A DNA stretch of 64,000 bases from an uncultured Mycoplasmatota bacterium (lineage in GTDB: Bacteria > Bacillota_I > Bacilli_A > RF39 > UBA660): NCBI GenBank assembly GCA_947165285.1, contig CAMUZS010000002.1:26302-90301 (forward strand), in the 5' to 3' direction. A program made the translations under genes and the position numbers. Under the pieces are notes generated by a model. It made no database searches. It saw nothing but the letters and a program-made list of their open reading frames with translations, and was not told the origin of the DNA. Positions 4,985-44,772 of the stretch are shown in pieces; the first letter of the stretch is position 1; every line of letters begins with the position of its first letter.

Positions 4985-7144
4985 TTATACTTCCTTCTTA
5001 AAAATAAAATCTATCCATTCCTCACATATAGTTTTAGAATCTAATATTTTTTGAATCTTACATCCATTTTTACTTAGTTTTTCACTTAATTTTTTATCAT
5101 TTAACACTTTATCAATATTACTTGCTAAATCATCTTCATTACTAAATATTACATTATAATTATCTTTTAATAAATCATTATTAAAACTATTTATAGTAAT
5201 TGATGGAATACCAATTGAAATTGCTTCAAATAAGGCATTTGGCATACCTTCATATTCACTAGTTAAAACAAATAAACTACTTTTATAAATATCATTTTTT
5301 ATATTATTAGACTTTCCCATTAAGAATACTTTATTTTCCAAATTATTATTAATAATATATTTTTGTAATTTATTTTTTAAAGATCCATCACCATATATTT
5401 TCAAAATATAATCTTTATTTTTTATATTACTAAATGATTTAATTAATAATAAATGATTTTTTTGAGGTTCTAATCTACCAACACTAACAATTTCTTTTTT
5501 TCTATTGCCATTAAATCTATTACATATAAAATTATTATCAAGGGGATTATATATTACTATAGATCTTTGTCTTATTTTCTTATCAAAATAATTCTTAGCT
5601 TCATTACTTTGAAATATAAATCCCGTTACCTTATTAAACAGTAATTTTATTAATATCTTATCTCTTAATCTATTAAATTCATATTTTGGATTATTTCTTA
5701 TTGAAACAAAAATTTTCTTTTTCATAAATAAATTAGCAATAATAACTCTATAAGATACCTCTGGTAAAAAAGAAATAATAACATCTGGATTAATATTTTT
5801 TATTAATTTTTTTAATTTAAAAATTCTTTTTACATTTTTTAAAATACAATTTTTCTTAGAGTCATCTAATAAATACTCATTAATATTACTATCCAATAAA
5901 AAGCTATTACTTGTTTTTAATGTATTAATAATACTTACATTATTTCTTTTTATCATTTCATTAGATAAAGTAGTAATTACTCTTTGAGCACCACCATAAT
6001 TTTTTGAACCACTAACAAATAATATTTTATTTTTTAAAATATTCAAATAATAATTTTGAATAAATAAAACACTATCTTTTATATCAAAACCTTTTTCTTT
6101 TATAATATTTGATTGATTTTTTCTTTCACTAATTGGTTTTAATACTTCTTTTATCCATTTATTAACATCTAATTTAACTACTTTTACTAGTTTTTTATTT
6201 AAGATACCATCTTTTACATTATCAGATACTATTACTTTTAAAGATGCTGCTTGAGCTTCAATTAAAGTTAAAGGAAGTCCTTCATAAATTGATGGAATTA
6301 ATAAAATATCAATAGCTTGCATTAACTCATTAATATCATTTCTATCCTTAAGTAAAATAACATAATCATTTAGTTTATGTTCGTCAATATATTTTAGTAC
6401 TTTTGATTCTAATGATCCACTTCCAACAATTATTAATTTAAAGTTACTATCAAATCTTATTAATTCATTTAATAAATATAAAGAAAACATAGGATTTTTT
6501 TGATGTTCTAATCTTCCTATAAAACCCAATAATATTGCATTATCATTTATTCCTAAATCTTTCCTTGTTCTTTTTCTTAAAATGTTATTAAATGCATACT
6601 TATCAACATCTATTGAATTATTTAATACAACACATTTATTTGATTTAGTAACCTTCTTTTTAAATAAATACTCACATGATTTTTGTGAACATCCCATAAA
6701 ATAATCACTAACATATCTTATTTTATGTTGATATATAGCCTTTAATATAGATTTTAACTTCATACCATTAGATGTATTATGTGAATGAGTGATAGTTTTT
6801 ATATTATATTTATGAGCTATTTTAATTATTAATGAGGCAATACTTCTTACATGAATATGAATTATTTTATATTCATTATGATTTTTAAAAAAATTATTCC
6901 ACTCTTTTTTAAATGAAAAATGATTTGTAAATTTATAATAATTCATATAATATATTTTTCCACCAAGACTCTTTATTTCATCAGCATAATATATTTCATC
7001 TTTTCTATCTACAATAAAATCAAATTGTATTTTAGATCTATCAATATTTCTATATAAATTCATAATTAATGATTGAGACCCACCACAATTTAAACTACCA
7101 ATATATTGTAAAATTCTTACTGGATTATTTTTCATAAAATTCAC
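4985..7144 (-). CDS. Fused tandem glycosyltransferase (two GT4-family modules)
   Basis: Two repeats of the GT4 architecture: N-terminal GG..(S/A)Q motifs (SLNCGGSQSLIMNL; NYGGAQRVITTL) and C-terminal E-G-hPhsLhEA motifs (EGLPLTLIEAQAA; EGMPNALFEAISIG). Confidence 0.8.
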   Translation of the reverse strand: MNFMKNNPVRILQYIGSLNCGGSQSLIMNLYRNIDRSKIQFDFIVDRKDEIYYADEIKSLGGKIYYMNYYKFTNHFSFKKEWNNFFKNHNEYKIIHIHVRSIASLIIKIAHKYNIKTITHSHNTSNGMKLKSILKAIYQHKIRYVSDYFMGCSQKSCEYLFKKKVTKSNKCVVLNNSIDVDKYAFNNILRKRTRKDLGINDNAILLGFIGRLEHQKNPMFSLYLLNELIRFDSNFKLIIVGSGSLESKVLKYIDEHKLNDYVILLKDRNDINELMQAIDILLIPSIYEGLPLTLIEAQAASLKVIVSDNVKDGILNKKLVKVVKLDVNKWIKEVLKPISERKNQSNIIKEKGFDIKDSVLFIQNYYLNILKNKILFVSGSKNYGGAQRVITTLSNEMIKRNNVSIINTLKTSNSFLLDSNINEYLLDDSKKNCILKNVKRIFKLKKLIKNINPDVIISFLPEVSYRVIIANLFMKKKIFVSIRNNPKYEFNRLRDKILIKLLFNKVTGFIFQSNEAKNYFDKKIRQRSIVIYNPLDNNFICNRFNGNRKKEIVSVGRLEPQKNHLLLIKSFSNIKNKDYILKIYGDGSLKNKLQKYIINNNLENKVFLMGKSNNIKNDIYKSSLFVLTSEYEGMPNALFEAISIGIPSITINSFNNDLLKDNYNVIFSNEDDLASNIDKVLNDKKLSEKLSKNGCKIQKILDSKTICEEWIDFIFKKEV

Positions 7145-8654: not shown

Positions 8655-8900
8655 TCCTAAAACAAAAAGAGACTGTACTAAAGAAAGTGCTTTCACACGG
8701 TACCATCTCTTATTTAACTCAAATATTGATAACGGAAAAATTTTTCCGGAAGTAGTTTACTACCCCACTCAATGGTAGGAATTATTTAAGTATATAATCT
8801 AGTTTCCACTATCCTAGAATCACTTTTTATATTTAAATAAATAATTATGTCCATCTCAATGTATTAAATAAATGATACAATTTTATGTTTATTTTGTCAA
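8655..8900 (-). promoter_or_regulatory. T-box riboswitch leader (proline specifier CCU) upstream of proS
   Basis: On the minus strand: an aattCCTAcc specifier loop, an AGTAAA-like box, and the conserved T-box agagatGGTACCGtg. Its 3' half can pair with downstream gtacagtctct followed by ttttgtttt, forming a terminator, with an alternative antiterminator. Confidence 0.7.
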
Positions 8901-8904
8901 TAAT

Positions 8905-8938
8905 TATGCTATAATGAAATTAATAATGGAGGCAGTAA
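8905..8938 (+). promoter_or_regulatory. Extended -10 promoter (TGcTATAAT) and GGAGG RBS driving the tandem small-paralogue operon
   Basis: tgctataat at 8907-8915 and ggagg at 8928-8932, 6 nt before the ATG at 8939. The -35 element is poor. Confidence 0.5.
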
Positions 8939-9307
8939 ATGAATATTCTTGATATAAATAAAAATATTTTAAAAAAACAAGAAGAAACTCAAACTACTTT
9001 AGAGAATAATGTTGATAAATATATTGACTATTTATTTAAAAAAAATGCAATTACTTATGGTGAACATTTCTATTTAAAGGAAATATTAATCACATATATA
9101 AATTTAAAAAATGAAAAGAAAAATATAATAGAAAACAACATAAATAATGATAATAAATTAAAAGTATTAAATAACTTAATATTTGATTGTGAACAAATAC
9201 TAGATGATTATGAAATAATAAAAAACGTGAAAGAATCTATGCATTCAAATAAAACTAAAGTATTAGCTAAATATAAACCTATTATTGCTTATAACATTAT
9301 AAAGTGA
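8939..9307 (+). CDS. Small hypothetical protein, paralogue A (122 aa)
   Basis: Shares the motif YIDYLFKKNAITYGEHFYLKEILITYINL with the downstream gene. Good RBS and promoter. Confidence 0.6.
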   Translation: MNILDINKNILKKQEETQTTLENNVDKYIDYLFKKNAITYGEHFYLKEILITYINLKNEKKNIIENNINNDNKLKVLNNLIFDCEQILDDYEIIKNVKESMHSNKTKVLAKYKPIIAYNIIK

Positions 9308-9321
9308 TATAATAATTTCCA

Positions 9322-9627
9322 TTGGGGGAAATCCTTATGGAAAAGTTAGAAAAAGTTATCAATGAACAAAGAATATCATATATTAATTCATTATTTAATA
9401 CAGGTGAAATAACTTATGGAGAATGTGAATATTTAAAATTAATACTAAAAAGTTATAATAATCTTATTAGAATGAAAAATGATCTTATATATGAAGATGA
9501 AATAACTAATATGTATAAAATTTATGAAATTGATAACTATTTAAAAATTAGCAGTCAAACATTAAATAAATATAATGTATTAAGAATAGATTATGAATAT
9601 GTTAAAGCATTAAATAAAGCCTTATAA
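9322..9627 (+). CDS. Small hypothetical protein, paralogue B (101 aa)
   Basis: YINSLFNTGEITYGECEYLKLILKSYNNL aligns with paralogue A. The two genes are in tandem and appear to be co-transcribed. Confidence 0.6.
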   Translation: MGEILMEKLEKVINEQRISYINSLFNTGEITYGECEYLKLILKSYNNLIRMKNDLIYEDEITNMYKIYEIDNYLKISSQTLNKYNVLRIDYEYVKALNKAL

Positions 9628-9646
9628 TAATTATAAGGTTTTTTAT

Positions 9647-10573
9647 TTAATCTAATACAAGTCCTTCTTCTAATATTAAATCTTTAAATACTTCTTTAAA
9701 TCTATCTTTTTCTTTTATTTTAACATCATCATAAACTGTTTTAGTATTTACAATAGCTTCATACACATGCTTAATTTTAACTTCTGAAGAATTATCATAT
9801 AAAGCTTGAGTAAACGAATTTGATAAAATAGTTAATGCAATATCTGGATAACGTGAAGATATTTCATATACTCTTTTATATTCATCAGTCATTTCAACAA
9901 TAAATCTCATTATTTTTTCATTAATAAATGGTGTATATCCCATTTTAATATTCATTTCTTTTTCAAATTTAGGATATGTACCCATCATAATTTTAACAGT
10001 TGTATCTTGCGAAGGTTCCTCTACATCTACTCTTTGAAATCTTCTTAAAAATGCCCTATCTCTTAAAATATATTGTTCATACTCTTCAGATGTAGTAGCA
10101 CCAATCATTTTAATCTCACCACGATCAAGTCCAGCTTTAAACATATTTGCAAAATCCATATTAGTAGTACCATCACTTTTAGCTAATAAATGAACTTCAT
10201 CAATAAAAACAATTGTTTTTTCACGACGCGCTAATTCTTTAACAAGTAAATCTACTCTATTCTCACTTTGATTATCTACATTTAAATTACCAAACAATGA
10301 TGTAACATTTAATTTATATAATGAGTATCCAAATAAAGCATTAGGTACCATATTATTCTTAATTCTATAAGCCAAACCTTCAACTATTGCAGTTTTACCA
10401 ATACCAGCCTTACCAACTAAAAGACCACTTTTTTCTGGTGTTAAAAGAATAAGAATTAATTGTTTAATTTCTTCATCTCTTGCAATAGCAGGATCTGTAA
10501 CATAATCCCTTGCTATTAAATCCTCACCATATCTCTCTAAAATACTATAATTATTATCCATATATATCACCAT
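9647..10573 (-). CDS. Orphan ClpA/ClpB/ClpC-type D1-only AAA+ ATPase (no N-domain, no D2)
   Basis: Clp D1 signature: [34 protein letters not shown] (Walker A), [10 protein letters not shown] (Walker B), and the sensor/arginine region [32 protein letters not shown]. The protein is only 308 aa. Confidence 0.7.
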
Positions 10574-10631
10574 ATTAATTATAACATATTTATATATTTT
10601 ATGTTAAAATATTACAAGGACTGATGATTTT

Positions 10632-11552
10632 ATGTTTAAGTACACTCTAGATAACAAAAGATATCATACACTTAATTATTACTATAAAAAGAAGTATGGA
10701 AAAAAAGTATTTAAAGTATCTTTAAATGCTTCCTTTTCATGTCCAAACAAAATAAATGGTAAAGGGTGTATTTTTTGTTCAAAACTAGGTAGTGGAGATT
10801 TTGCTGGAAATAAAGATAAAGATTTAAAAACACAATTTGAAGAAGTAAAAAATATAATGTTAAAAAAATGGAATGATGCATACTTTATAGGATATTTTCA
10901 AGCTAATACAAATACATACGCACCAGTTGAAGTATTAAAAGAAAAATATGAAAGTATATTAAGATTAGATAACGTAATTGGATTATCTATTGCTACAAGA
11001 AGTGATTGTATTAATGAAGAATGTTTAAATTATTTAGTAGAATTAAATAAAAAAACAGATCTTACAATAGAACTTGGACTTCAATCTATGCATGAAAGCA
11101 CTCTAAAATATATTAATCGAGGACACGATTTAAGTAATTTTGATAATTGTGTAAAAAAATTAAAAGAAAACAATATAAAAGTAGTAGTTCATATTATTAA
11201 TGGACTACCAAATGAAACAAAAGATATGATGTTAAAAACAGTTAAACATTTAAACAAATTACATATAGATGGAATTAAAATACATATGCTACATGTAATA
11301 AAAAATACAGAATTAGCTGATATTTATTTAAAAAATCCATTCCATATATTAACTAAAGATGAATATATTGATATAGTTATTTCTCAATTAGAATTATTAG
11401 ATCCTAAAATAGTTATACATAGAATTACTGGAGATCCAGTTAAAGAAGATTTAATAGAACCAAAATGGTTATTAAAAAAGTTCTGTGTTTTAAACGATAT
11501 AGACAAAGAAATGGTAAGAAGAAATTCTTACCAAGGAAAATTACTAGATTAA
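10632..11552 (+). CDS. Radical SAM protein, TIGR01212 (YhcC-like) family
   Basis: An N-terminal SFSCPN...GKGCIFCS cluster like E. coli YhcC (GGCTFC). A TIM-barrel radical SAM core of about 300 aa. Confidence 0.75.
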   Translation: MFKYTLDNKRYHTLNYYYKKKYGKKVFKVSLNASFSCPNKINGKGCIFCSKLGSGDFAGNKDKDLKTQFEEVKNIMLKKWNDAYFIGYFQANTNTYAPVEVLKEKYESILRLDNVIGLSIATRSDCINEECLNYLVELNKKTDLTIELGLQSMHESTLKYINRGHDLSNFDNCVKKLKENNIKVVVHIINGLPNETKDMMLKTVKHLNKLHIDGIKIHMLHVIKNTELADIYLKNPFHILTKDEYIDIVISQLELLDPKIVIHRITGDPVKEDLIEPKWLLKKFCVLNDIDKEMVRRNSYQGKLLD

Positions 11553-12313: not shown

Positions 12314-13021
12314 TTAAGCTCCTGTATTTGCAACACTTGTTTGTAATTTAGCTGTAAATGATTTTCCTTGATTTTCATTTTGCTTAATACTAGTTTCTTT
12401 AAATTCAAGTACTAAAATATAATTATCAGTTGAATTAGCATTAATTGTTGCATGAGTTAATTCACCAGCAATAGTTGGAACAGCAGTTTCAGTACCAACA
12501 ATATTAGCAGGATCTACAGAATTTTTATATAATCTGTATACAAAATCATTAGAACCAGATGTAGCAGCAGCTAATTGTTCTGGAGTATAATTTCCTGAAG
12601 CATCTTTTTGAACAGTTATAAATTCATTTGTAAGATCAGTCCAACTAATTGTATAAGTTACTGGAATTGTTGAATTATTAGTAACTGAAATAGCTTTACC
12701 TACAGAATATACTGGAGTAGCATCTTTAGTGTCATCAGCATTACTTTCATTTACACAAGTAGTATCAGATAATCTATAACCACTATCACAAGTATAACTT
12801 GTAATTGTTCTACTAATCCATCCAGGGATAATTCCTGTAGCAGTAATTTGAGGTCCGTCACTATATGCAACAGATAAATTTGCAGTAGTTACAGATGTAG
12901 TTTTAGCTTGTTCATTTCCTTCTACAGTAGCTGTAAAGTAAGCGAAAGTAGTACCAACTACAGCAGTTAATAATGTAGCAATTGCTAATACTGTTAAAAA
13001 TACAACATTCTTCTTTTCCAT
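12314..13021 (-). CDS. Secreted TasA/camelysin-like protein with SipW-cognate-class signal peptide
   Basis: The N-terminus LTVLAIATLLTAVVGTTFAYFTA matches the SipW-cognate signal motif (hydrophobic core then G-T-x-A-Y-F-T). A mature domain of about 200 aa, Thr/Ser-rich and beta-rich, as in the TasA/CalY family. Confidence 0.55.
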   Translation of the reverse strand: MEKKNVVFLTVLAIATLLTAVVGTTFAYFTATVEGNEQAKTTSVTTANLSVAYSDGPQITATGIIPGWISRTITSYTCDSGYRLSDTTCVNESNADDTKDATPVYSVGKAISVTNNSTIPVTYTISWTDLTNEFITVQKDASGNYTPEQLAAATSGSNDFVYRLYKNSVDPANIVGTETAVPTIAGELTHATINANSTDNYILVLEFKETSIKQNENQGKSFTAKLQTSVANTGA

Positions 13022-13171
13022 AATTTTCTCCTCTCTCTATCTTATAAATTAATCATAGCAAAATTATCTATAAACTGCAAGAAATATTTATTTTTTTTTA
13101 TCTTTTTTACAGTTATTATTTATATTATTACTTAAAGTAAAAAAAATATACTATAAAAAAAAAGAATGATA

Positions 13172-14437
13172 TTATTCATTCTTTTCTTCTTTTTTTAAAC
13201 CCTTAATTCTTTTTATTATTTTATTCTTACTTATACCTAACCAAATAACTAATATAATACATATTAATAGTAATACACCTGCTCCGATTAACATATATAA
13301 ATAAAAACTATCATTACTTAGTTCATTGAATAATTCTTCATCAAATACTTGGAATGTTTTATTATTTACATCATATAAATAATATGTTGAATTTCCAGTA
13401 TTTAAATCCATACCATAAATAATATAGTATTTATTTAAATCTTTATATTTAAAAGCAACTATTTCATTACCATCAATATTAATTGTAGTTTTAGTAAATC
13501 CTTTGTATGGAATACTATCAATATCTTGTGGAAAAATATTTAAATTTGATTGTAGTGAAATATATTTAGTATATTTTCCATCATTATATTTAAAGAAATA
13601 TGTATTACCAGATTCATCTTTTAAAGCAATAAGTGTTATATTATTTAATTCATTTTTAAAAGCAGGTACTTCCACTCCATCTATTGTAATTTTTTCTTCA
13701 ACATATCCTTCAGGAATCTCTAGATTTTTACTATTTTTTACAATTGTATAATTTATTCCATTAACACTTACATTTATTGGATTATTATCCTTTACATTAA
13801 CTATAACAACATATGTTTGTTTAGCTCCACTTTCAGCAGTAACAATAATTTCAAATTTATTGCTTCCTTCAACTACTTCTTTTTCTCCATCTCCTTCAAC
13901 TGAAGATTTAGAATCTTTTTTTGTTGTATTAATCTTAACTTTATCAACAGTTGATGGAACTTCTACACTATATTCAAAAATGTCATCACTAAATTCTGGT
14001 GTAAGTTCATATCCTTCTACTTCAATTTTTTTCAAAGTATTAATTGTTGAAGCTGGTGCTGGTTCTCTAACATTAACAGACTTAGAACCTGAAAGATTAA
14101 TTGTACTATATGATGTATCAGTAATATCCCCTGATAAGGTAAATGCTATAGTTCCTAAAGATGATGCTTTACAAGTTGTTGAAAAAGTCTTTGTTCCATT
14201 CTCTCCATTTTCATTCTCGCCAGACCATTCATTACTACATCCATATGTATTACCAGATGATATAATTTTTATATGCCAAGATCCAGCATTTCTAATAGTA
14301 ACTGATGCAGTTACACTTTTACCATTTTCAATTGATGCTGATGAAACATTAAACGAATATGAGGGTGCTGCACTAACAATTAAACTAAAGCATCCCATAC
14401 ATATCACACTAAATAATAAATATTTTAATTTTTTCAT
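13172..14437 (-). CDS. Surface protein with signal peptide, cadherin-like beta-sandwich-type domain and C-terminal TM anchor
   Basis: Signal peptide MKKLKYLLFSVICMGCFSLIVSAA. The segment LKKIEVEGYELTPEFSDDIFEYSVEVP...KFEIIVTAESGAKQTYVVIVNV resembles the bacterial cadherin-like domain pattern. C-terminal TM helix LIGAGVLLLICIILVIWL. Confidence 0.45.
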   Translation of the reverse strand: MKKLKYLLFSVICMGCFSLIVSAAPSYSFNVSSASIENGKSVTASVTIRNAGSWHIKIISSGNTYGCSNEWSGENENGENGTKTFSTTCKASSLGTIAFTLSGDITDTSYSTINLSGSKSVNVREPAPASTINTLKKIEVEGYELTPEFSDDIFEYSVEVPSTVDKVKINTTKKDSKSSVEGDGEKEVVEGSNKFEIIVTAESGAKQTYVVIVNVKDNNPINVSVNGINYTIVKNSKNLEIPEGYVEEKITIDGVEVPAFKNELNNITLIALKDESGNTYFFKYNDGKYTKYISLQSNLNIFPQDIDSIPYKGFTKTTINIDGNEIVAFKYKDLNKYYIIYGMDLNTGNSTYYLYDVNNKTFQVFDEELFNELSNDSFYLYMLIGAGVLLLICIILVIWLGISKNKIIKRIKGLKKEEKNE

Positions 14438-14453
14438 AAATCATAACTCCTTT

Positions 14454-16175
14454 TTATTTTTGACTAATATTATCCTTATTTAATAAAAATCTTCGCAATT
14501 TTAATAAATTAGCAGAGTTCACATCATCACCATTCATTATTTTTGCAGATTCCATAAATGCTCCAGACAAATTATCCTTACCAATTAAATATCTTCTCAT
14601 TTTCAAAAGATCAGCAGAATTTATTTGACCATCTCCAGTTAAATCACCATAAACTACAACAGTATAAGATGTACCATTAGCAAATGTAATAGTTTGTCCT
14701 GTCTTAATTAAACCATCACCATTTATTTGAATAGATGAATCTTTAGATTTTATTTCATCTATACTAGCACCTATTTCAAAACCTCTAATAAATCCTTCTT
14801 TTATAGAACCACCTATATTACTTACAGCTGAAGATATTTCTGAAGATGAAGAATTGTTTTCACTACTTCCATTATAAGTATATGTTGCACATATTGTACA
14901 TAGACCACCACTTGCATAAACTAGTCCAGCTTTAACAGGATTTTCTGCAGACGATGATGCACCTATATTATAAAAATTAAATAATCCTGAATAAGTAGTT
15001 CCCTTATATTCAAATTGTTGTCCTGTTGTATTAAACTCACCTATTTCTTGAACAGATAAAGATGCTAGATAAACAGGATTAACATTTGCATTTTTTCCTG
15101 CTTCTAAAAATATTGAAGAATAAGATTGATTATCAATAAAATCCATTCCACTTATATAACTTTTTCTATTCAATACCCCTTGAATAACACTTTCAGGTAT
15201 ATCAATATATGACAAATTTTCAAACATAAATACATAAGATTCATTTAAAAAATTTCTTGGATCTAAATAATAAGCAGTTGTTGCTTGATTAGGTTTATAC
15301 CATCCCTTTTCACCAGTTCCAATTGCATTTCCTTCACTACATTCAACTAAAGCACAATCAGTACTTTGAATTGCACCAGTTTCTTTAAATACAGCTGAAG
15401 CTTCTTCGATAGTAAGACCTGTTTTCATCGGAGTAAATGTCCAATTATCATGTTCTTGATGTAACTGTCTTAGATATGGTTTATAACTATCTGGAAAATC
15501 CTTAATCATATTTTCAAATGCATCATCTGTTTTATCAGTAGTTCCTAAGTTTGCTTTCTTTCCTCTTGGATGAGCATATTCACCTGCCATATTTTCATAC
15601 ACAGGAATTGAAAAACTAAAAGGTAAATTAAATGATCCATTTTTATAATAAGAAGTAGATGAAGATACAGCCTCAGTAGATGGTGCAGTAATATTAGATT
15701 GATATAAATGAGAATAAATAGAATAATGTCCATTTGGATTAACATTAAATTTTTTTAAATAAGAAGTAAATTGACCTTTTGCAATATATCCATTAGCTAT
15801 CCATTTAGCTCCACCAACGATTGCCTTTTTAGGAGTATTCCATGGTCTATCATATGGATTATCTAAAGATTGAGTTGTTATATATTTAGAACAAATATAT
15901 CCCTCTTTTGAATTATAACTTACCTTTAACCAACCATCATCACAACCTTCACCAGAAACTTTTTTATCATCAATAACAGTTACTTTAGTATTAGTATTTA
16001 AAGTATCTAAAATATCACTATTTTTAGTACTAGGATTTTGTCTAAATCTAACTCCATCAGTAGAAACTCTTGCTTCATATGATGCAGCCTTAACATTAAT
16101 TGGTACAACAAATAAAGAACAGAAAGTTAGAGAAATAATCATAATAATAGTAAATGCTTTTTTTATCTTAACCAT
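14454..16175 (-). CDS. Secreted SH3b-domain protein with central putative GH73-like glycosidase region and C-terminal type-I dockerin
   Basis: Signal peptide, then an SH3b-like segment (YEARVSTDGVRFRQNPS...GWLKVSYNSKEGYICSKYI). The C-terminus has two dockerin Ca-binding repeats (DLTGDGQINSADLLKMRRYLIG; NGDDVNSANLLKLRRFLLNK). The central region weakly resembles N-acetylglucosaminidase (LASLSVQEIG...GLFNFYNIGA). Confidence 0.55.
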   Translation of the reverse strand: MVKIKKAFTIIMIISLTFCSLFVVPINVKAASYEARVSTDGVRFRQNPSTKNSDILDTLNTNTKVTVIDDKKVSGEGCDDGWLKVSYNSKEGYICSKYITTQSLDNPYDRPWNTPKKAIVGGAKWIANGYIAKGQFTSYLKKFNVNPNGHYSIYSHLYQSNITAPSTEAVSSSTSYYKNGSFNLPFSFSIPVYENMAGEYAHPRGKKANLGTTDKTDDAFENMIKDFPDSYKPYLRQLHQEHDNWTFTPMKTGLTIEEASAVFKETGAIQSTDCALVECSEGNAIGTGEKGWYKPNQATTAYYLDPRNFLNESYVFMFENLSYIDIPESVIQGVLNRKSYISGMDFIDNQSYSSIFLEAGKNANVNPVYLASLSVQEIGEFNTTGQQFEYKGTTYSGLFNFYNIGASSSAENPVKAGLVYASGGLCTICATYTYNGSSENNSSSSEISSAVSNIGGSIKEGFIRGFEIGASIDEIKSKDSSIQINGDGLIKTGQTITFANGTSYTVVVYGDLTGDGQINSADLLKMRRYLIGKDNLSGAFMESAKIMNGDDVNSANLLKLRRFLLNKDNISQK

Positions 16176-37442: not shown

Positions 37443-39635
37443 TTATTTTAAAACTTTTTTATAATAATTATATTGCATAATAAGTTTTGACATATTGATA
37501 CGATTAGCAACTACTTTATTCATCTTACTTACATAATCTTCTGGTATATCTTTTCCATCTAATGCAATAAATTTTCCAGTCGCAGCATTATACCTACCCA
37601 AATCACTTATCCAACTACGATCTGTAAAAAACGCAAGTCCATTTTCAGTAGAAAATATATCTTTTCCAATAATTAATCTAGAATCATATTTTACGTTAAA
37701 CATATTTAGTACAGTTGGAAGTACATCAAGTTGTGTTGTAATTTTATCAATAACTTTATGTTCAGAATTATTATTCCATATAATTAATGAAGAATGATTA
37801 ACTTCAAATCTTTCATCTCTTTTATAATCAGATAATTCATTAATTGTATTAATATTCATAGAATATGGATAATGATCTGGTACAATAACTATTACCGTAT
37901 CATCTAATTTATTTTCTTCAGTTAATTTATTAATTATTTGTTCAACTGCCTTATCAAGTTCAATATTAGCTGCAACATAAGCTTTAGCTTCCTCTGACAT
38001 TTTTAAATCAGATACTTTATCTTTATTTCTTCTAGACATATTATTTCCAGAAAATGACCATGGCATATGACCAGATACACTTACATAATAAGTCATAAAT
38101 TTATCTTCTTTAATAAAATCATCTAATGTAACATTAACCATATCATAATCAGATTGTGGCCATAAATTACAATTCATTTTCTTTTCAAGACCATTTCCTC
38201 TTGCTAAAAATTTATCAAATCCCATACTCTTTAAATATTTATTACGATCTTGAAATCCTCCATAATTTGGATGATATGCATTAACTTCATAACCTAAATT
38301 ATTAAAAACATTACCAAGTCCATATGGAAAGTAATTTGTACCACCTCTAAAATATGTACTTAGCATTCCAAGATTAGCAAATAAACCAGTCAAATCTTGA
38401 AATTCACCACCTAATGTACTTAAATTTACTGGTGTATAAAAATTAGTAAATTCAAATCCTTCATGAGATAATTTATATAAAGTTGGTGTATATTTTTCAG
38501 ATATTGCAATATTATTTAAACTTTCACCCATTATAAATATTAAATTCTTTCCTTCATATATTCCTGTATATTCATTTTTATAAGTTGGATTTTGTTTGCT
38601 AAAGTATTCATGCATACTTTTAATAGTAGAATTACTTTCTCCTGCAATTAAACCATCAAAATCTATATCTTCCTTATTTGGTTCAAAAGTAATTTCCTCT
38701 TCGTTATTATTTTCTATAACTTCAGGTATTTCATCTAATACTACTTTTTCTTCAATTGGATTAATAATTCTTTTAATATCTAAGTATGTAGATACATTAA
38801 TTCCCATTTTTTCTACATTCATTGCATTACTATCAATATTATAAAATAACTCTTTAATTTCATTATTACTATTTATAGAAATAATAAACAATACAATGCT
38901 TACTGCTAAAAATAATAAGTTTAATGTAAATTGTTTTATATTATTTTTTTTATAATTAATTTTTTTATTAAATAAAATTATAACTATAAAAGGTATAATA
39001 AATAATAATAAGAATGAAAAGTTTTTTAATACTTCAGAAATAGTAGTATCCATAAATGCAACAGCTTGATCACTTATACCTAATAAATGAAATGAAAAGA
39101 AAGTATTAAATATTCTTTTAAAAACAAACAATCCAAAATAACAACCACTTAATAAGAAAACTATAATAAATGATACTATCTTATTAAATTTATCACTAAA
39201 CAATCTTGTTATTATATTTAATATAACAGACATAATTAAAGCAAATAATCCAAAGTATATTATTTTAGTTGGAAACATAGAATTAAAATCAAATATAGTA
39301 ATTTGATATATTAATTCTATAAATAATATACTTATAAAATATACTAATCCTAAATTAATTTTTCTTTTTTCTTTTTCTTCTTTAGTTGGTTTTATATTAT
39401 TTATTTCAACTTTTAAATCTTTATTTTCAATAATAGCTTCTTCATTTTTTACTTCAGTTAATATAGGTTCACTTTTAACTGTAGTTCTTTTTTTAACAGT
39501 TGTACTTTTTTTAACTGTACTAATCTTTTTCTTTGGTGTAACATTTTTCTTTTTAGGTGTTGTTTTAGTAGTATTTTTTTTGACAGTATTTTTCTTAGTA
39601 GTAGTACTTGTTTTTTTCTTAGGCATAAAAATCAC
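37443..39635 (-). CDS. LtaS-type sulfatase-family membrane protein (lipoteichoic acid synthase-like / phosphoglycerol transferase) with an about 100-aa Lys/Thr-rich N-terminal tail
   Basis: Five TM helices, then an extracellular alkaline-phosphatase-superfamily domain (FIMGESLNN..., VIVPDHYPYS). The N-terminus is MIFMPKKKTSTTTKKNTVKKNTTKTTPKKKNVTPKKK... Confidence 0.7.
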   Translation of the reverse strand: MIFMPKKKTSTTTKKNTVKKNTTKTTPKKKNVTPKKKISTVKKSTTVKKRTTVKSEPILTEVKNEEAIIENKDLKVEINNIKPTKEEKEKRKINLGLVYFISILFIELIYQITIFDFNSMFPTKIIYFGLFALIMSVILNIITRLFSDKFNKIVSFIIVFLLSGCYFGLFVFKRIFNTFFSFHLLGISDQAVAFMDTTISEVLKNFSFLLLFIIPFIVIILFNKKINYKKNNIKQFTLNLLFLAVSIVLFIISINSNNEIKELFYNIDSNAMNVEKMGINVSTYLDIKRIINPIEEKVVLDEIPEVIENNNEEEITFEPNKEDIDFDGLIAGESNSTIKSMHEYFSKQNPTYKNEYTGIYEGKNLIFIMGESLNNIAISEKYTPTLYKLSHEGFEFTNFYTPVNLSTLGGEFQDLTGLFANLGMLSTYFRGGTNYFPYGLGNVFNNLGYEVNAYHPNYGGFQDRNKYLKSMGFDKFLARGNGLEKKMNCNLWPQSDYDMVNVTLDDFIKEDKFMTYYVSVSGHMPWSFSGNNMSRRNKDKVSDLKMSEEAKAYVAANIELDKAVEQIINKLTEENKLDDTVIVIVPDHYPYSMNINTINELSDYKRDERFEVNHSSLIIWNNNSEHKVIDKITTQLDVLPTVLNMFNVKYDSRLIIGKDIFSTENGLAFFTDRSWISDLGRYNAATGKFIALDGKDIPEDYVSKMNKVVANRINMSKLIMQYNYYKKVLK

Positions 39636-41749
39636 TCCTTAATTAATGATAATTGCACTTTTTCTCGAGATTTATCTATATTATCTACATAACATTTTAT
39701 TATATCTCCAACATGAAGATAATCATTTATATCTTTAACAAAAGATTTAGAAACTTTAGATATATGAATTAATCCATCATCATGAAGACCAATATCAACA
39801 AATGCACCAAATGTTGTAACGTTTCTTACTACACCCTCAAGTTCCATACCAATATTTAAATCATCTATAGTTAAAATATCACTCTTTAAAATTGGAGCAG
39901 GAAGTTCATCTCTAGGATCTAAACCTGGAGACAATAATTCCTTAATTATATCTTCGATTGTATATATATTTGAATTATACTTTTTAGCTAATTCATTCTT
40001 ATCTAAATTTTTAATTTTTTCCTTAAATGAACTATCATTAATATTATTAACATTTAATCCTAAATCATTTAATATATTCATAGTTAATTCATAACTTTCT
40101 GGATGTATTCCTGTATTATCTAAAGGATTATTACTTTTAGGTATTCTTAAAAAGCCTATAGCTTGTTCATATACTTTATCTGATATACCTTTTACCTTTT
40201 TTATATCTTCTCTAGTAGAAAAAGGTTTATTTGATAATAATGCTTTAATTGAAGGTTTAGTTAAACCAGAAATATATTTTAATATTGATGGAGAAGCTGT
40301 ATTAACATTAACCCCTACTTCATTAACTACTTTAGAAACAGTAAAATCTAAATTTTCACTTAGTTCTTTTTGATTAACATCATGTTGATATTCACCAACA
40401 CCAATTGATTTAGGATCTATTTTAACAAGCTCAGATAATGGATCTTGTACTCTTCTTCCAATTGATATTGCACTTCTTTTTTCAACAGTTAAATCTGGAA
40501 ATTCTTCCTTAGCTAAATCAGATGCTGAATAAACACTTGCACCAGCTTCACTTGTTATTATATACTTACAATCCATCCCCTTTATAGTATTTGCAATAAA
40601 AGCTTCACTCTCACGAGATGCTGTACCATTACCAATAGATATTAAATTAATATGATATTTATTAATTAATTCTCTAACAACTTTTTCAGAGTTTTCAATA
40701 TCATTATGTGGTTCAGTTGGATAAATAACTTTAATATCTAATACATTACCATTTTCATCTAATACTGCCAATTTACAACCTGTTCTAAAAGCTGGATCAA
40801 ATCCAAGAACTACACTATTTTTAATAGGTCTAGTTAATAATAATCCTTCAAGATTATGTCCAAAAGTTTCAATTGCTTTTTTTGATGATCTATCAGTTAA
40901 TTCTGATCTAATTTCTCTTTCTATTGATGGTAGAATTAATCTCTTTAAAGCATCTTTTATAAAATCCTTAACATAATCACATACAAAAGAATCTTTATTT
41001 TTAATTATTTTACTTTCTAAGAATTCAATAATTTTATCTTTATCATAATCTAAATCAACTTTTAATATTTTCTTATCTTCACCACGATTAATTGCTAATA
41101 CATGAAAATGTTTTGACCATTTTATTGGTTCAGAAAACTCATAATACATAGAGTAAGTTTTATTTTCATCTAATTTTTCATCTTTTAGTTTTGAAATTAT
41201 GCTTCCATTATTAAAAATAAAGTTTCTAATATATTTTCTATAATATGCATTATCTGAAATCCATTCAGCAATAATATACCCAGCATTCTCAATGGCTTTA
41301 TCAACTTCCATATTATAATTACTTGCAAGAGTATTCATATCACCATTTATAGGAAAAGACATTATCTTTTTAGCTAAAGGTTCCAAACCTAATTTAATAG
41401 CTTCAGTAGCTTTAGTTTTTTTCTTTTCTTTAAATGGTCTATATATATCCTCAATTTCCGTTAACTTTGATGCATTCATAACTTGATTTTTAATATCGTC
41501 TGTTAACATTCCTTTTTCGTCTATTAATCTAATAACATCTTCTTTTCTTTTAAACAAATTTAATTGATAATTATATTCATCTGAAATAGTTCTAATTTGA
41601 TCTTCATTTAAGTTTCCAGTAGCTTCTTTTCTATATCTTGCAATAAAAGGTATAGTAGCTTCTTCACTTAATAACTGAAGTACAGCTTTTATTTGTTTAT
41701 CACTTAATTCTAATTCATCACAAAGCTTATTAATTATTGTTTCATTCAT
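39632..41749 (-). CDS. tex: Transcription accessory protein Tex (YqgF/RuvC-like, HhH and S1 domains)
   Basis: The N-terminus ...IPFIARYRKEATGNLNEDQIR is the Tex signature. A C-terminal S1 domain (GMELEGVVRNVTTFGAFVDIG). Confidence 0.9.
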   Translation of the reverse strand: MNETIINKLCDELELSDKQIKAVLQLLSEEATIPFIARYRKEATGNLNEDQIRTISDEYNYQLNLFKRKEDVIRLIDEKGMLTDDIKNQVMNASKLTEIEDIYRPFKEKKKTKATEAIKLGLEPLAKKIMSFPINGDMNTLASNYNMEVDKAIENAGYIIAEWISDNAYYRKYIRNFIFNNGSIISKLKDEKLDENKTYSMYYEFSEPIKWSKHFHVLAINRGEDKKILKVDLDYDKDKIIEFLESKIIKNKDSFVCDYVKDFIKDALKRLILPSIEREIRSELTDRSSKKAIETFGHNLEGLLLTRPIKNSVVLGFDPAFRTGCKLAVLDENGNVLDIKVIYPTEPHNDIENSEKVVRELINKYHINLISIGNGTASRESEAFIANTIKGMDCKYIITSEAGASVYSASDLAKEEFPDLTVEKRSAISIGRRVQDPLSELVKIDPKSIGVGEYQHDVNQKELSENLDFTVSKVVNEVGVNVNTASPSILKYISGLTKPSIKALLSNKPFSTREDIKKVKGISDKVYEQAIGFLRIPKSNNPLDNTGIHPESYELTMNILNDLGLNVNNINDSSFKEKIKNLDKNELAKKYNSNIYTIEDIIKELLSPGLDPRDELPAPILKSDILTIDDLNIGMELEGVVRNVTTFGAFVDIGLHDDGLIHISKVSKSFVKDINDYLHVGDIIKCYVDNIDKSREKVQLSLIKE

Positions 41750-41821
41750 TTATTACCACCATTTATATTATACAATATTTATATAATATTAAAAAGACAA
41801 TTATTAATTATTACAATTGAA

Positions 41822-41848
41822 AAATCTTTACTATTAAAGTAAAGATTT
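41822..41848 (-). terminator. Putative terminator hairpin 3' of the YihY-family gene
   Basis: Perfect 11-bp inverted repeat aaatctttact-atta-agtaaagattt. The flanking U-run is weak. Confidence 0.35.
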
Positions 41849-41862
41849 CTACATTGTAAACA

Positions 41863-42762
41863 TTAATTGTTTACATTTTTATTATTTACTTTCTTACTAG
41901 AAATATTCTTTCCTTTTTTTGGTAAATCATTATTAGATATTTCTTTTAACTCATCTTTTCTATAATTTAAAGCTAAACCAATAACAAATATATTAGCTAA
42001 CAAATAAACCCAAAGCATCAATACTATTATATTAGCAAGTCCTCCATAAAAAATAGAATAATGATTATAATGATTTATATAAAATGAATATATTCCAGTA
42101 GCTAATATCCAACCAAATGAAGTAAATAATGCTCCATAAGTTGTTTGTTCAGACGGAATATTTTTATCTGGTGCCATCGTAAATAATAATTTAATAAAGA
42201 AAAATATTATTAACCATGATAATGGACCATTTAATATATTAATAATATTTTTTAAAGCATTACTAACACCAGAATTAATATTAATATTACTTAAAAGTTC
42301 AATAATTTTTTGACCAAATAATGGTACTATTAAAATAAAAATAAATAGTAAAATCAAAAATATTGTCATAACCATTGATTTAATTCTACGTCTTAAAAAT
42401 CCTTGATCTTTAATACCATAGATAGTATTTGAAGTTACAATTATTGAAGAACATCCATTTGAGGCAAAGAAAAAACCTATTAATAAAATAACAATAAAAC
42501 CAAAAGAAATATTAACGTTATTTATTTCAGGGATTATTAATTTAGCCAATTCAGCTCCAAAAGCCCCTTCAATAAAATGTTCAAATACATCAAATGATAA
42601 ATTTAAATAACTAGCTGCGTAACTAACTAATGTCAAAGTAGGAACAATAGACAAAATAAAAAAGAAAGCAAGTTGTCCAGGTAAAACTAACATCTCAGGT
42701 TTTTTTATTACAGTTTTAAAATTATTAACAAATTTTTTTACTCTCTTTTTCATGAATATCAC
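41863..42762 (-). CDS. YihY/BrkB (virulence factor BrkB / former RNase BN) family membrane protein
   Basis: About 300 aa with six TM helices. The N-terminus ...LPGQLAFFFILSIVPTL is typical of the family. Confidence 0.65.
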   Translation of the reverse strand: MIFMKKRVKKFVNNFKTVIKKPEMLVLPGQLAFFFILSIVPTLTLVSYAASYLNLSFDVFEHFIEGAFGAELAKLIIPEINNVNISFGFIVILLIGFFFASNGCSSIIVTSNTIYGIKDQGFLRRRIKSMVMTIFLILLFIFILIVPLFGQKIIELLSNININSGVSNALKNIINILNGPLSWLIIFFFIKLLFTMAPDKNIPSEQTTYGALFTSFGWILATGIYSFYINHYNHYSIFYGGLANIIVLMLWVYLLANIFVIGLALNYRKDELKEISNNDLPKKGKNISSKKVNNKNVNN

Positions 42763-44772
42763 CTAAATTTCTTGCTTCTTTTCTTTCATATCATCTACAG
42801 CTTCATTAATTGCATCTTCAATTGTTTTAATATCATCTTCTATCATTGAATATGAAATGATAGCACTATAATCATATGGAAGTTTTTTAAACTCTCTAAC
42901 TAACTTTCTAATATAACTTTCTACACTTCTTCTTTCATATCCAACTAAATATATTAAGAATTCATTACCATCAGTTCTCATAATATCACTATTATCAAGT
43001 TGTGTTCTAATTAAAATATTAGATGCAGCCTTAATTTGTTTATCTCCTTCATCATAACCAAAAGTATCATTTATTTCTTGAATCTTATTTAAATCTATTA
43101 TAACTGTTGCTTGAGGATATATACTATTTTTATTCCAAACAGAAATATTTTCATTTAAATAATTTCTATTTTTTAATGATGTTAACTGGTCAATAAATTT
43201 AATCTTATCTTCTTTTCTAATCTTTTTAGAAATCTTAATTTTCTTAGTAGACTTATAAAAAATATAAATTAATAATATAATAGCTACTAAAATAATTAAA
43301 ATATATTTTGCCATTTGGCCAAAAAATGATCCTTTTTTAATTGTACTAGAATAATCTTCTAAACCAGATATTTTTAAATACTCTGGATTTTGTGAAGTTA
43401 TATAACCATTAAATAATTTTATAAATGAATCATCAGCATTTAATTTAAAATTATATGTTTTATCAATAGTATTACTATATCTTATAGTATAATTCTTTAA
43501 TTCATTATTATTCATATAATTATAAGTAGCTTCATCAAGCATTATTATAATATCTTTTTTAGATAATTTTTTTAATTCATCTATACTTTTATAAGTTTTA
43601 ACATTAATATTTGTAACACTAGATAATTGATTAAATAAAATACTATTTTCTAATACATAAACATCTTTATTTTTCAAACTATTTAATGAATTAACAACTA
43701 AATTATTATTATTTTTAGCTATAACAACATAAGAATTATAAATATTAGTATTTACAGTTTTAAAATCATTAATATCATTATAATAATTAAAGTAAATATC
43801 TACTTCACCTTTATTTAAAGCATTAACAAAATTATTATAGTTTTTATACCTAATGTATTTGAACTCTACACCAGATAAATCACTAAATCTCTTCAAATAT
43901 TGAGATACAATACCACCATAATTTCCACCTATTAATACTTCATAAGGACTATTATTAATTAAACCATATCTATATACTTTACTCTTAATATTAGCTAAAT
44001 CAATTTCAGTTAAATTCAAATTATACATTAAAGTATTTAATAAATTAGAATCTATATATCTATTTAAATTATCTTTTTTCCATGAATTAAAATATTTTTT
44101 TATGATGTTAGAAAATACATCATTATCTTTCATTTCATAAACATAATAATTTTTAATATCACCTAGATAATATACAATCTTATAATTATTTTTAACAATA
44201 GATCCAATATATAAACTTCTAGGGACAACCATATAATTTATATCACTAGATTCATTAAATGCCTTTTCTAAATCACTATAACTGTCATATAAAGTAAAAT
44301 TAACATTATTTAAATATGATTTAATATAATCACTATCATTTTTTAATATTCCTATTTTCTTATCAGATAAATCACTATTATTTCTAATTATTAAATCAGA
44401 TTTAGAAATCATAACATAATAATCTTCGTATAATACTACTGATTTTTCATCCAAAACATTAGTCATTTTAAATCCATCATTAACATTAATTTCATTCAAA
44501 TTATATGTAATTGGATTAATTTTTAATTGATATTCTTTAGAAAAATCTTGAATAAAATCAAAAAATACACCATATCCATTATTACCAAATATATCAACAT
44601 TATTTAATACATTAACATTTTGAACTGTTGATAAATTAGAATTAATCCACTTTTTTTCATCAACAGTTAATTTACTCTCATCATGAAGTAAATTAATTGT
44701 AACAATAGCTCCTACAGCTATAATTACTAATATAATAATTGTAATAATAGATCTTTTTAACCATTTTTTCAT
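42763..44772 (-). CDS. Membrane sensor with large extracytoplasmic domain and cytoplasmic degenerate GGDEF domain (D-G-N-E-F)
   Basis: Two TM helices flank an extracytoplasmic region of about 450 aa. The C-terminus IDLNKIQEINDTFGYDEGDKQIKAASNIL...RTDGNEFLIYLVG aligns with the GGDEF consensus, except that the GG(D/E)EF motif is DGNEF. Confidence 0.65.
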   Translation of the reverse strand: MKKWLKRSIITIIILVIIAVGAIVTINLLHDESKLTVDEKKWINSNLSTVQNVNVLNNVDIFGNNGYGVFFDFIQDFSKEYQLKINPITYNLNEINVNDGFKMTNVLDEKSVVLYEDYYVMISKSDLIIRNNSDLSDKKIGILKNDSDYIKSYLNNVNFTLYDSYSDLEKAFNESSDINYMVVPRSLYIGSIVKNNYKIVYYLGDIKNYYVYEMKDNDVFSNIIKKYFNSWKKDNLNRYIDSNLLNTLMYNLNLTEIDLANIKSKVYRYGLINNSPYEVLIGGNYGGIVSQYLKRFSDLSGVEFKYIRYKNYNNFVNALNKGEVDIYFNYYNDINDFKTVNTNIYNSYVVIAKNNNNLVVNSLNSLKNKDVYVLENSILFNQLSSVTNINVKTYKSIDELKKLSKKDIIIMLDEATYNYMNNNELKNYTIRYSNTIDKTYNFKLNADDSFIKLFNGYITSQNPEYLKISGLEDYSSTIKKGSFFGQMAKYILIILVAIILLIYIFYKSTKKIKISKKIRKEDKIKFIDQLTSLKNRNYLNENISVWNKNSIYPQATVIIDLNKIQEINDTFGYDEGDKQIKAASNILIRTQLDNSDIMRTDGNEFLIYLVGYERRSVESYIRKLVREFKKLPYDYSAIISYSMIEDDIKTIEDAINEAVDDMKEKKQEI

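Follow-up and report, generated by a model that had tools for sequence, protein, structure and literature searches.

In the usual classification of Clp/Hsp100 ATPases, to our knowledge, the single-module members (ClpX, HslU, and Skd3) are all of the D2 type, and D1 serves as an auxiliary ring only in tandem with D2. ClpX and HslU form single rings from one D2-type module, ClpA has no M-domain, and ClpX, HslU, and Skd3 keep aromatic pore loops and carry a zinc-binding domain, an I-domain, and ankyrin repeats, respectively. Skd3 has one nucleotide-binding domain (NBD), which is of the NBD2 type (PMC7343390). The gene described here lies in a 64-kb stretch of DNA from an uncultured Mycoplasmatota bacterium (contig CAMUZS010000002.1; the whole stretch is called the window below), and its product is a complete Clp/Hsp100 D1 AAA+ module, consisting of the large subdomain and the lid, and nothing else. 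An earlier note on the same DNA took an N-domain, an M-domain, and a second ring to be universal among functional Clp/Hsp100 unfoldases, which is overstated in view of ClpX, HslU, ClpA, and Skd3. The protein is best read as an autonomous, assembly-dependent, non-threading remodelling or regulatory ATPase, to which we assign a probability of about 0.6. As for the parts of this reading, the identity and functionality of the module are close to certain, and for the absence of threading the odds are roughly even.

A complete D1 module with an altered pore loop

According to NCBIfam, the protein matches the ClpA model TIGR02639 (E = 3.8e-52, 177.5 bits) over model positions 165-449 of 734, which comprise the D1 large plus small subdomain, followed by ClpB (8.4e-49, 166.6 bits) and ClpV (7.8e-48). 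None of the equivalog cut-offs for ClpA, ClpB, ClpV, ClpK, and ClpG is reached (177.5 vs 993 bits for ClpA and 166.6 vs 1232 bits for ClpB); the generic AAA family PF00004 of Pfam is found at 43.8 bits vs a gathering cut-off of 21.2 (residues 51-175). Sequence matches in the PDB belong to D1 of ClpB, Hsp104, ClpA, ClpE, and ClpC with E-values from 1e-26 to 1e-43 (1e-34 to 1e-43 for D1 of ClpB and ClpC), the best being ClpB1 9ip0 (E = 1.1e-43), and the ClpB match spans residues 160-367 of the ClpB chain. The earlier note had described an open reading frame (ORF) at 9647-10573 with the Clp D1 motifs in order and with the N-domain, M-domain, and D2 missing. Both statements hold, as all four motif strings quoted there are found in the translation, and Pfam detects none of the three regions in the protein (no Clp_N, no AAA_2/D2 above threshold, and no D2-small). 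Pfam also reports no accessory domain and no D1 lid family AAA_lid_9 at E<=0.01, and the NCBIfam ClpX and HslU models give no match. Only ~10-14 residues precede the D1 linker motif.

The AlphaFold2 model, computed from a 53-sequence alignment, has a mean predicted local distance difference test score (pLDDT) of 87.6 and a predicted template-modelling score (pTM) of 0.85. The predicted fold comprises a complete AAA+ alpha/beta subdomain, a complete helical lid, and two further C-terminal helices; confidence is low only for the first seven residues, ~91-110, and ~131-150. In AAA+ proteins the latter two stretches correspond to pore loops 1 and 2, the first connecting beta2 to alpha2 and the second the Walker B strand to alpha3. 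A Foldseek search of the PDB returned solely D1 modules of ClpC1, ClpC, ClpB, and ClpA, with a query template-modelling (TM) score of 0.68-0.78 among the matches listed, and for the 268-residue D1-only chain 8yd1_E the target TM score is 0.84 with a root-mean-square deviation of 3.1 Å. Completeness of the small helical subdomain, a point left for checking by the earlier note, is thus supported by the AlphaFold2 helices, by Foldseek, and by the ClpA alignment, which runs to model position 449.

Conservation was read from two alignments, A1 (11 sequences) and A2 (53 sequences), with residues numbered as in the 308-amino-acid (aa) form. Every residue needed for ATP binding and hydrolysis is kept, including the trans-acting arginine fingers: R178 is invariant in A1 and at least 90% conserved in A2, and R177 is at least 90% conserved. 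The family consensus of the Walker A motif is GKpGIGKT, and in the flank of pore loop 2 D140, N143, and K146 are invariant or nearly so. The lid helices cover residues 189-207, 215-228, 244-259, 267-276, 282-295, and 297-302, mostly with pLDDT >90, and contain family-specific motifs, namely MGTYPKFE and EYKRVYE..RYPD, the latter where Clp has 'R-LPDKAIDL'. The lid sequence has thus diverged, while its predicted fold is retained. The motifs LLTPEKS, GTxPKxE, and RYPD are derived and common to the family.

The most telling deviation, absent from the earlier note, is that pore loop 1 has lost its tyrosine. AAA+ translocases grip their substrates with aromatic residues in the pore loops, and the canonical D1 segment reads G-(A/T)-K-Y-R-G-E-F-E, with KYRG replaced by NLNV in the window protein. 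This segment, which was aligned by HMMER to ClpB and by BLASTP to the ClpC of a neighbouring clade and where pLDDT is 66-72, varies more than any other part of the family protein, which is otherwise highly conserved. The aromatic motif is absent in 225 of 226 family forms without an extension at either end, and a separate clade of 315-aa proteins has GVDPVTGE at pore loop 1, in which no residue is both bulky and hydrophobic. Among the long forms, 46 have the motif and 64 lack it (~40% keep it). Since mutations in the NBD1/NBD2 substrate-binding loops of Hsp104 severely disrupt activity (PMC7343390), the loss of the aromatic makes canonical threading unlikely.

Gene integrity and the wider family

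The D1 gene is intact and under strong purifying selection. The gaps on its two sides are 58 bp and 19 bp, and tblastn of a full-length 772-aa ClpC from a related genome against the 64-kb window (E<=10) returned the D1 region only, with no D2 or N-domain. Across six orthologue pairs, the ratio of nonsynonymous to synonymous substitution rates (dN/dS) is 0.014-0.10 at dS of 0.4-1.25. Colinear orthologues of 300-317 aa are present in 53 species-level genomes, so that homologues of similar length, which the earlier note proposed to look for, do exist in related genomes. All of these are uncultured gut or rumen bacteria, labelled as Bacilli, Tenericutes, Erysipelotrichaceae, 'Coprobacillus sp. CAG:605', or 'Mycoplasma sp. 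CAG:956', and no frameshifts or stop codons were seen in the 53 loci. The protein database adds >100 clusters of 301-320 aa with 72-100% identity, and the second clade, of 315 aa, is found on hundreds of contigs.

In 16 of the 25 loci of one clade (L029-L053), an intact full-length clpC lies 2-3 genes from the D1 gene and comprises N-domain, D1 (in which KYRG is canonical), and D2; the D1 gene is thus an additional paralogue rather than a broken or split clpC. Among 62 related loci there is no D2-only or N-domain-only ORF, and D2 occurs only inside intact full-length clpC. A frameshifted or split pseudogene was rejected on these grounds, since neither the ClpC search of the window in all frames nor the D2/N-domain search of the 62 loci gave any fragments. 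The suggestion of the earlier note that the gene is a remnant of a split or decayed clpB/clpC is therefore refuted by the short gaps, dN/dS, the invariant motifs, the colinear homologues, and the nearby intact clpC. A functionless, decaying fragment of clpB/clpC with its N-domain and D2 deleted or frameshifted would account for an architecture that resembles the middle third of a class-I Clp gene and for matches far below the cut-offs of all Clp equivalog models. It is, however, extremely improbable given that catalytic motifs are invariant or nearly so, that no other Clp domain appears in any frame of the window, including the adjacent ones, that 53 genomes and hundreds of protein clusters agree in the end points, and that the family has derived motifs of its own.

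As for the wider family, an exhaustive search was made over 1.84 billion representatives, and the best 150 at 50% identity were examined. In 123 of these 150 the complete module is present at family-level score, either at the end of the protein or with nothing beside it but an unrecognised or low-complexity region. Bare D1 accounts for 10 of the 123 representatives, an N-terminal region of 40-169 aa, 170-300 aa, or >300 aa for 18, 61, and 20, respectively, and a C-terminal tail of 99-680 aa for 14; none of the 123 has a D2 module. The extra regions of the examined examples have no Pfam or NCBIfam match and are of two kinds, helical ones of ~200-300 aa (P0159, P0163, P0170, and P0174) and long low-complexity ones, such as the 540-aa N/S-rich C-terminal tail of P0123 and the 540-aa N-terminal region of P0129. 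The tail of P0123 contains repeated 'FLFGAPMY' motifs.

The family was defined by D1 as the last folded domain (ending <=45 aa past the lid, or followed by a low-complexity tail), by the LLTPEKS, GTxPKxE, and RYPD motifs, and by a score of at least 204 bits against a hidden Markov model (HMM) of the core. Canonical Clp proteins with two rings, the syntenic ClpC among them, stay at or below 186 bits, and family members at or above 204. The window protein has the motifs, 0 residues past the module, and 536 bits against the family HMM; the latter value is uninformative because the HMM was built from its own clade, and the informative quantity is the gap seen with long, distantly related forms. 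Neither Pfam nor NCBIfam has a model for the family in its short or long forms, names in the source records are generic ('ATP-dependent Clp protease ATP-binding subunit', 'AAA family ATPase', and 'hypothetical protein'), and no description of a D1-only or single-module D1-type Clp, or of an RF39 ClpC link, was found in the full-text literature. Hence the other outcome that would have undercut the earlier note, a single-ring family already known under another name, was not encountered in any of these sources. The family is widespread in gut Firmicutes and without a curated name, and its architecture is a variant on Clp D1 parts.

In a neighbour-joining tree, which is rough and has no support values, all bare and disordered-tail forms fall into one clade, comprising the window protein, L029-L053, and the 315-aa clade. 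No member of this clade has the aromatic motif, and the clade is nested within a radiation of ~500-aa proteins, with canonical Clp outside. The simplest history would thus start from an ancestor with an N-region and D1, already without D2, from which one lineage would have lost the N-region and the pore-loop tyrosine. Comparison of the long-form N-region with the Clp N-domain by hhalign was not significant (probability 1% from an alignment with contaminants and 8.5% from a clean alignment); a 31-column match to Clp_N repeat 2 is suggestive but likewise non-significant. A bolder proposal, which we put forward tentatively and with more doubt than confidence, is that the family might form a third architectural class of Clp/Hsp100, single-ring, D1-type, and widespread in gut Firmicutes. 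A derived clade including the window gene would have lost the N-region and the pore-loop tyrosine, leaving a minimal ~300-aa ring that uses ATP for a non-threading role (e.g., a regulated scaffold or switch), sometimes with long acidic disordered tails.

Two further features of family members concern their termini. Matched strictly, a C-terminal motif K-[IV]-I-x-F-P occurs in 42 of 76 long forms (e.g., P0159, P0170, P0168, and P0281) and in 19 of 226 short ones, and is missing from the clade of the window protein; this tail looks like a docking peptide for some partner. In the L029-L053 clade (55-58% identity; e.g., L029:5719-6906), D1 has an N-terminal extension of 70-200 aa, which is extremely acidic, D/E/N/I-rich, and of low complexity, with recurring 'IEVID / LELIDDNYLN'-like motifs. 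Since this extension stays open in DNA of ~24% GC, it is almost certainly translated.

Proposed function and genomic context

Arginine fingers act only across subunit interfaces, and their conservation makes a ring oligomer very probable. The D1 protein would work as such a ring, probably a hexamer like other Clp D1 rings, with an assembly-dependent ATPase cycle. In class-I Clp ATPases it is D2 that carries the loops docking to ClpP, so that a protein missing D2 cannot feed ClpP, and no substrate delivery to ClpP is expected. Without the pore-loop tyrosine, canonical hand-over-hand translocation of polypeptides would probably not occur either. The most likely role would be that of an ATP-driven remodelling, holding, or regulatory machine rather than a classical unfoldase or protease partner.

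Several points weigh against this proposal. A tyrosine stands one residue out of register in some sister sub-clades (GEYNID and GDYDIA), the hydrophobic residues L97 and V99 are still present in the pore loop, and non-canonical threading would be possible. The case for oligomerisation comes from arginine-finger conservation and homology, and isolated D1 fragments of some Hsp100 proteins assemble poorly. The family history depends on the rough tree, and clustering of all ORFs of the 53 loci, together with three further homologue contexts, gave no universal neighbour across clades. Finally, the view of the genome is 64 kb wide, and a separately encoded D2 may lie elsewhere.

The pore-loop residues also bear on the possibility of a genuine single-ring threading unfoldase or disaggregase, which would be the D1-type equivalent of ClpX or Skd3 and would grip its substrate by a non-canonical pore loop. 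Such a machine would agree with the conserved ATPase machinery and arginine fingers, the conserved D-F-A-N-x-F-K flank of pore loop 2, the aliphatic L97 and V99, the shifted tyrosines, and the canonical aromatic kept by a share of the long forms. We nevertheless consider it unlikely, as the aromatic is missing from nearly all bare forms, the 315-aa clade offers no bulky hydrophobic replacement, the loop varies between clades in a highly conserved protein, the Hsp104 loop mutants are impaired, and the bare forms have no substrate-recognition domain.

The 64-kb view is in turn relevant to a split two-ring Clp ATPase, of which the window protein would be the D1 half, pairing in trans with a D2 protein from another gene to rebuild a ClpB/ClpC-like machine. 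This arrangement has a precedent in ClpB, which can be reconstituted when NTD-NBD1-MD and NBD2 are supplied as two proteins (Beinker et al. 2005, cited in PMC7343390). However, D2-only and N-only ORFs are missing from all 62 related loci, no neighbour is conserved across clades, the lid is too diverged for AAA_lid_9 and the M-domain insertion site is absent, and loss of the pore-loop tyrosine would be odd for a working translocase tier, which together make the split arrangement highly improbable.

The clade with nearby clpC suggests another role, in which the D1 protein would act on full-length ClpC within its own cell. It would join the D1 ring of ClpC, or cap this ring, or compete for adaptors, in parallel to ClpC2 and similar partial Clp paralogues. 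Besides the linkage itself, the closest structural matches are D1 of ClpC and ClpC1, and a precedent exists in mycobacterial ClpC2, a functional, partial homologue of ClpC1 that corresponds to its N-domain (PMC10030653). The linkage, however, is confined to one clade and absent in the window and the other contexts examined; identity to the ClpC D1 of the neighbouring clade is 33%, which is low for mixed-ring assembly, and the protein has no N-domain to compete for adaptors. There is also no sign of co-regulation with the classical clp regulon, since no CtsR operator (RGTCAAA direct repeat) was found within 3 mismatches near 10574-10660, CtsR itself not being established for this host, and operator-like matches across the whole window are at or below chance. 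In sum, a ClpC modulator appears rather improbable, and a non-threading ATPase remains the preferred reading.

With regard to genomic context, the D1 gene is convergent with a pair of small paralogues and divergent from a YhcC-like radical SAM gene, as the earlier note had it. The pair are true paralogues (39% identity over 70 aa, E = 2e-8), and the radical SAM gene belongs to the MnmL/YtqA (YhcC) family TIGR01212 (E = 1.2e-105). The small ORFs, 8939-9307 (+) of 122 aa and 9322-9627 (+) of 101 aa, are adjacent and share the motif 'ITYGE..YLK.IL..Y.NL'; they have no match in Pfam, NCBIfam, PHROGs, or PADLOC, and such a pair does not adjoin the D1 gene in any related locus examined. The window neighbours (the radical SAM gene, the small pair, and ProRS) are common only to the closest relative, L001. 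They were ruled out as functional partners, being kept in L001 but in 0 of 52 other loci. Thus, the alternative put forward in the earlier note, a minimal Clp-type ATPase with a partner, stands as far as the minimal ATPase is concerned, and no conserved partner was found in the contexts.

In L029-L053 the gene order is FemAB (PF02388, 8e-51), the D1 gene, a gene for a 4-transmembrane protein that overlaps the D1 stop codon, a 255-aa protein, and clpC. In L029-L051, a triose-phosphate-isomerase-like gene and then a response regulator (Spo0A-like by eye) come before FemAB, which is on the opposite strand, as is clpC, and the 255-aa protein has no family. Other clade-specific contexts include PAP2 and BacA, PssA and Psd, a PilB/GspE-like ATPase, and a CDF transporter with GlmS; a DUF5684 membrane protein lies downstream of one long form and has no detectable relation to the 4-transmembrane protein. 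Membrane and envelope functions recur around D1 genes, with no gene family common across clades. Genes for CotJB and an Mn-catalase (CotJC-like) were seen near the homologue P0372; together with the Spo0A-like gene, they suggest that genome-reduced 'Tenericutes-like' Bacilli may retain sporulation genes.

The window itself is ordinary chromosome, with PFOR, Arg, Pro, and Phe tRNA ligases, RNase R, an LCP transferase, and glycosyltransferases. Two other origins were considered and rejected, this housekeeping setting being one reason: a defence system, for which PADLOC gave weak generic AAA matches only (IetA and TRIP13, E from 1e-5 to 1e-7), and a phage, as the sole strong PHROG match is a 764-aa full-length Clp family.

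If the proposed reading is true, a stand-alone D1 family would show that a D1 ring can be an autonomous machine, and the minimal ~300-aa form would offer a natural system that separates ATP-driven ring dynamics from substrate threading. Uncultured Bacilli of the gut and rumen with reduced genomes, in which retained genes tend to be important, carry the family in abundance. Its present annotations are wrong or vague, and only a modest practical benefit can be expected before a function is found.

Features of the locus and comparison with known Clp systems

Table 1. Coordinates of the D1 gene, its putative signals, and the motifs of its product in the window
Feature	Position	Strand	Remarks
Clp D1-type AAA+ ATPase, coding sequence	9647..10573	-	308 codons + stop from ATG 10573; stop codon 9647-9649
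Shine-Dalgarno-like GGTGA	10567..10571	-	5 nt upstream of ATG 10561; read directly from sequence
Promoter-like site TTAACA, 18-nt spacer, TGnTATAAT (extended -10)	10578..10607	-	directly upstream of the D1 gene
AT-rich hairpin CCTTATAA-TAA-TTATAAGG, then T-run	9620..9645	.	between two convergent genes; seen by eye
Walker A / P-loop GKAGIGKT, residues 54-61	10391..10414	-	G54, G59, K60, T61 invariant in A1 and A2
Pore-loop-1 equivalent GNLNVDNQS, residues 95-103	10265..10291	-	stands in for G(A/T)KYRGEF; no aromatic
Walker B IVFIDE, residues 121-126	10196..10213	-	F123, D125, E126, H128 invariant
Pore-loop-2 region AKSDGTTNM, residues 131-139	10157..10183	-	then conserved D-F-A-N-M-F-K; pLDDT low at 131-150
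Sensor-1 strand IGATT, residues 157-161	10091..10105	-	G158, T160, T161 invariant
Arginine-finger pair R177, R178 in LRRFQ	10040..10045	-	aligns to ERRFQ of ClpB
Helical small (lid) subdomain and C-terminal helices, residues 186-308	9650..10018	-	helices from AlphaFold2

An open frame of 308 codons is not expected by chance, the G+C content of the window being 23.6%. The second ATG (10561), which gives 304 aa, is the likely start. An identical 304-aa database protein (P0001) was called from this ATG, and some orthologues (P0005 and L002; MESNYSI...) begin at the corresponding position; the upstream methionine, however, is kept as well in other orthologues. The 4-residue difference is immaterial for this analysis. 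The promoter-like site has the top score within 8700-11000 (11/12 matches plus TG), but shuffles of this AT-rich region give as many such sites, so that its support is only positional. The hairpin overlaps the stop codon of the convergent small ORF and is a candidate, possibly shared, terminator of both convergent genes. It was not reported by the terminator scan because its stem has only 2 G-C pairs.

Several other ORFs of the window were recorded in passing. A run of three predicted secreted or surface proteins occupies 12314-16175 (-): the first (235 aa) has an N-terminal signal-like 'TTFAYFTA' and a weak sub-threshold match of camelysin/TasA type (Peptidase_M73), the second (421 aa) a cadherin-like beta-sandwich domain and a C-terminal transmembrane segment, and the third (573 aa) an SH3_3 domain and a C-terminal type-I dockerin, which is unexpected in such a genome. 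Three large consecutive ORFs of 730, 705, and 669 aa at 37443-44772 (-) have no NCBIfam match at E<=1e-30, and the same holds for ORFs 49297-50565, 51173-53164, and 45602-46714. The 719-aa ORF at 4985-7144 (-) appears by eye to be a fusion of two glycosyltransferase-like halves and sits in a larger envelope-polysaccharide block with a WecA-like gene, PglJ-like glycosyltransferases, an MsbA-like ABC exporter, an LCP transferase, and two asparagine-synthase-like amidotransferases.

Among described systems, the closest are the class-I D1 modules of ClpC/ClpC1, ClpA, ClpB/Hsp104, and ClpE, which have the same fold over the whole length (TM score 0.72-0.78) and 28-33% identity to the window protein. 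Walker A, Walker B, sensor-1, the RRF arginine fingers, the N-terminal 'DP-I-R--EI' linker motif, and the complete lid are shared with them. In contrast to class-I Clp, the window protein has no N-domain, M-domain, or D2, and hence no ClpP-binding loop, KYRG has given way to a variable non-aromatic loop, the lid is too diverged for AAA_lid_9, and scores stay under the equivalog cut-offs. Thus, four class-I features are lacking, namely the D2 module, the N-domain, the aromatic pore loop, and equivalog-level scores.

With class-II ClpX and HslU and with Skd3 (human CLPB), the window protein has in common one AAA+ module per subunit and membership of the Clp/Hsp100 superfamily. It differs from them in being of the D1 type, according to the ClpA model alignment, and in having neither an accessory domain nor a pore-loop aromatic; since the class-II single modules are D2-type, it does not belong to class II. 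As for ClpC2, both are conserved genes that correspond to one part of a full-length Clp ATPase and coexist with the full-length protein. ClpC2, however, is an N-domain without an ATPase, whereas the window protein is an ATPase module without an N-domain.

The long family members of ~500-590 aa (e.g., P0159, P0170, P0194, and P0174) have a D1 that is 36-41% identical to that of the window protein and ends at the same point, and both contain the motifs LLTP(E/D)KS, GTxPKxE, and (R/N)xPD(L/I)xLT(I/L)L. They differ from the window protein by the helical N-region of ~200-300 aa, which matches no recognised family, by the pore-loop tyrosine that ~40% of those sampled keep, and by the K-[IV]-I-x-F-P tail carried by many of them.

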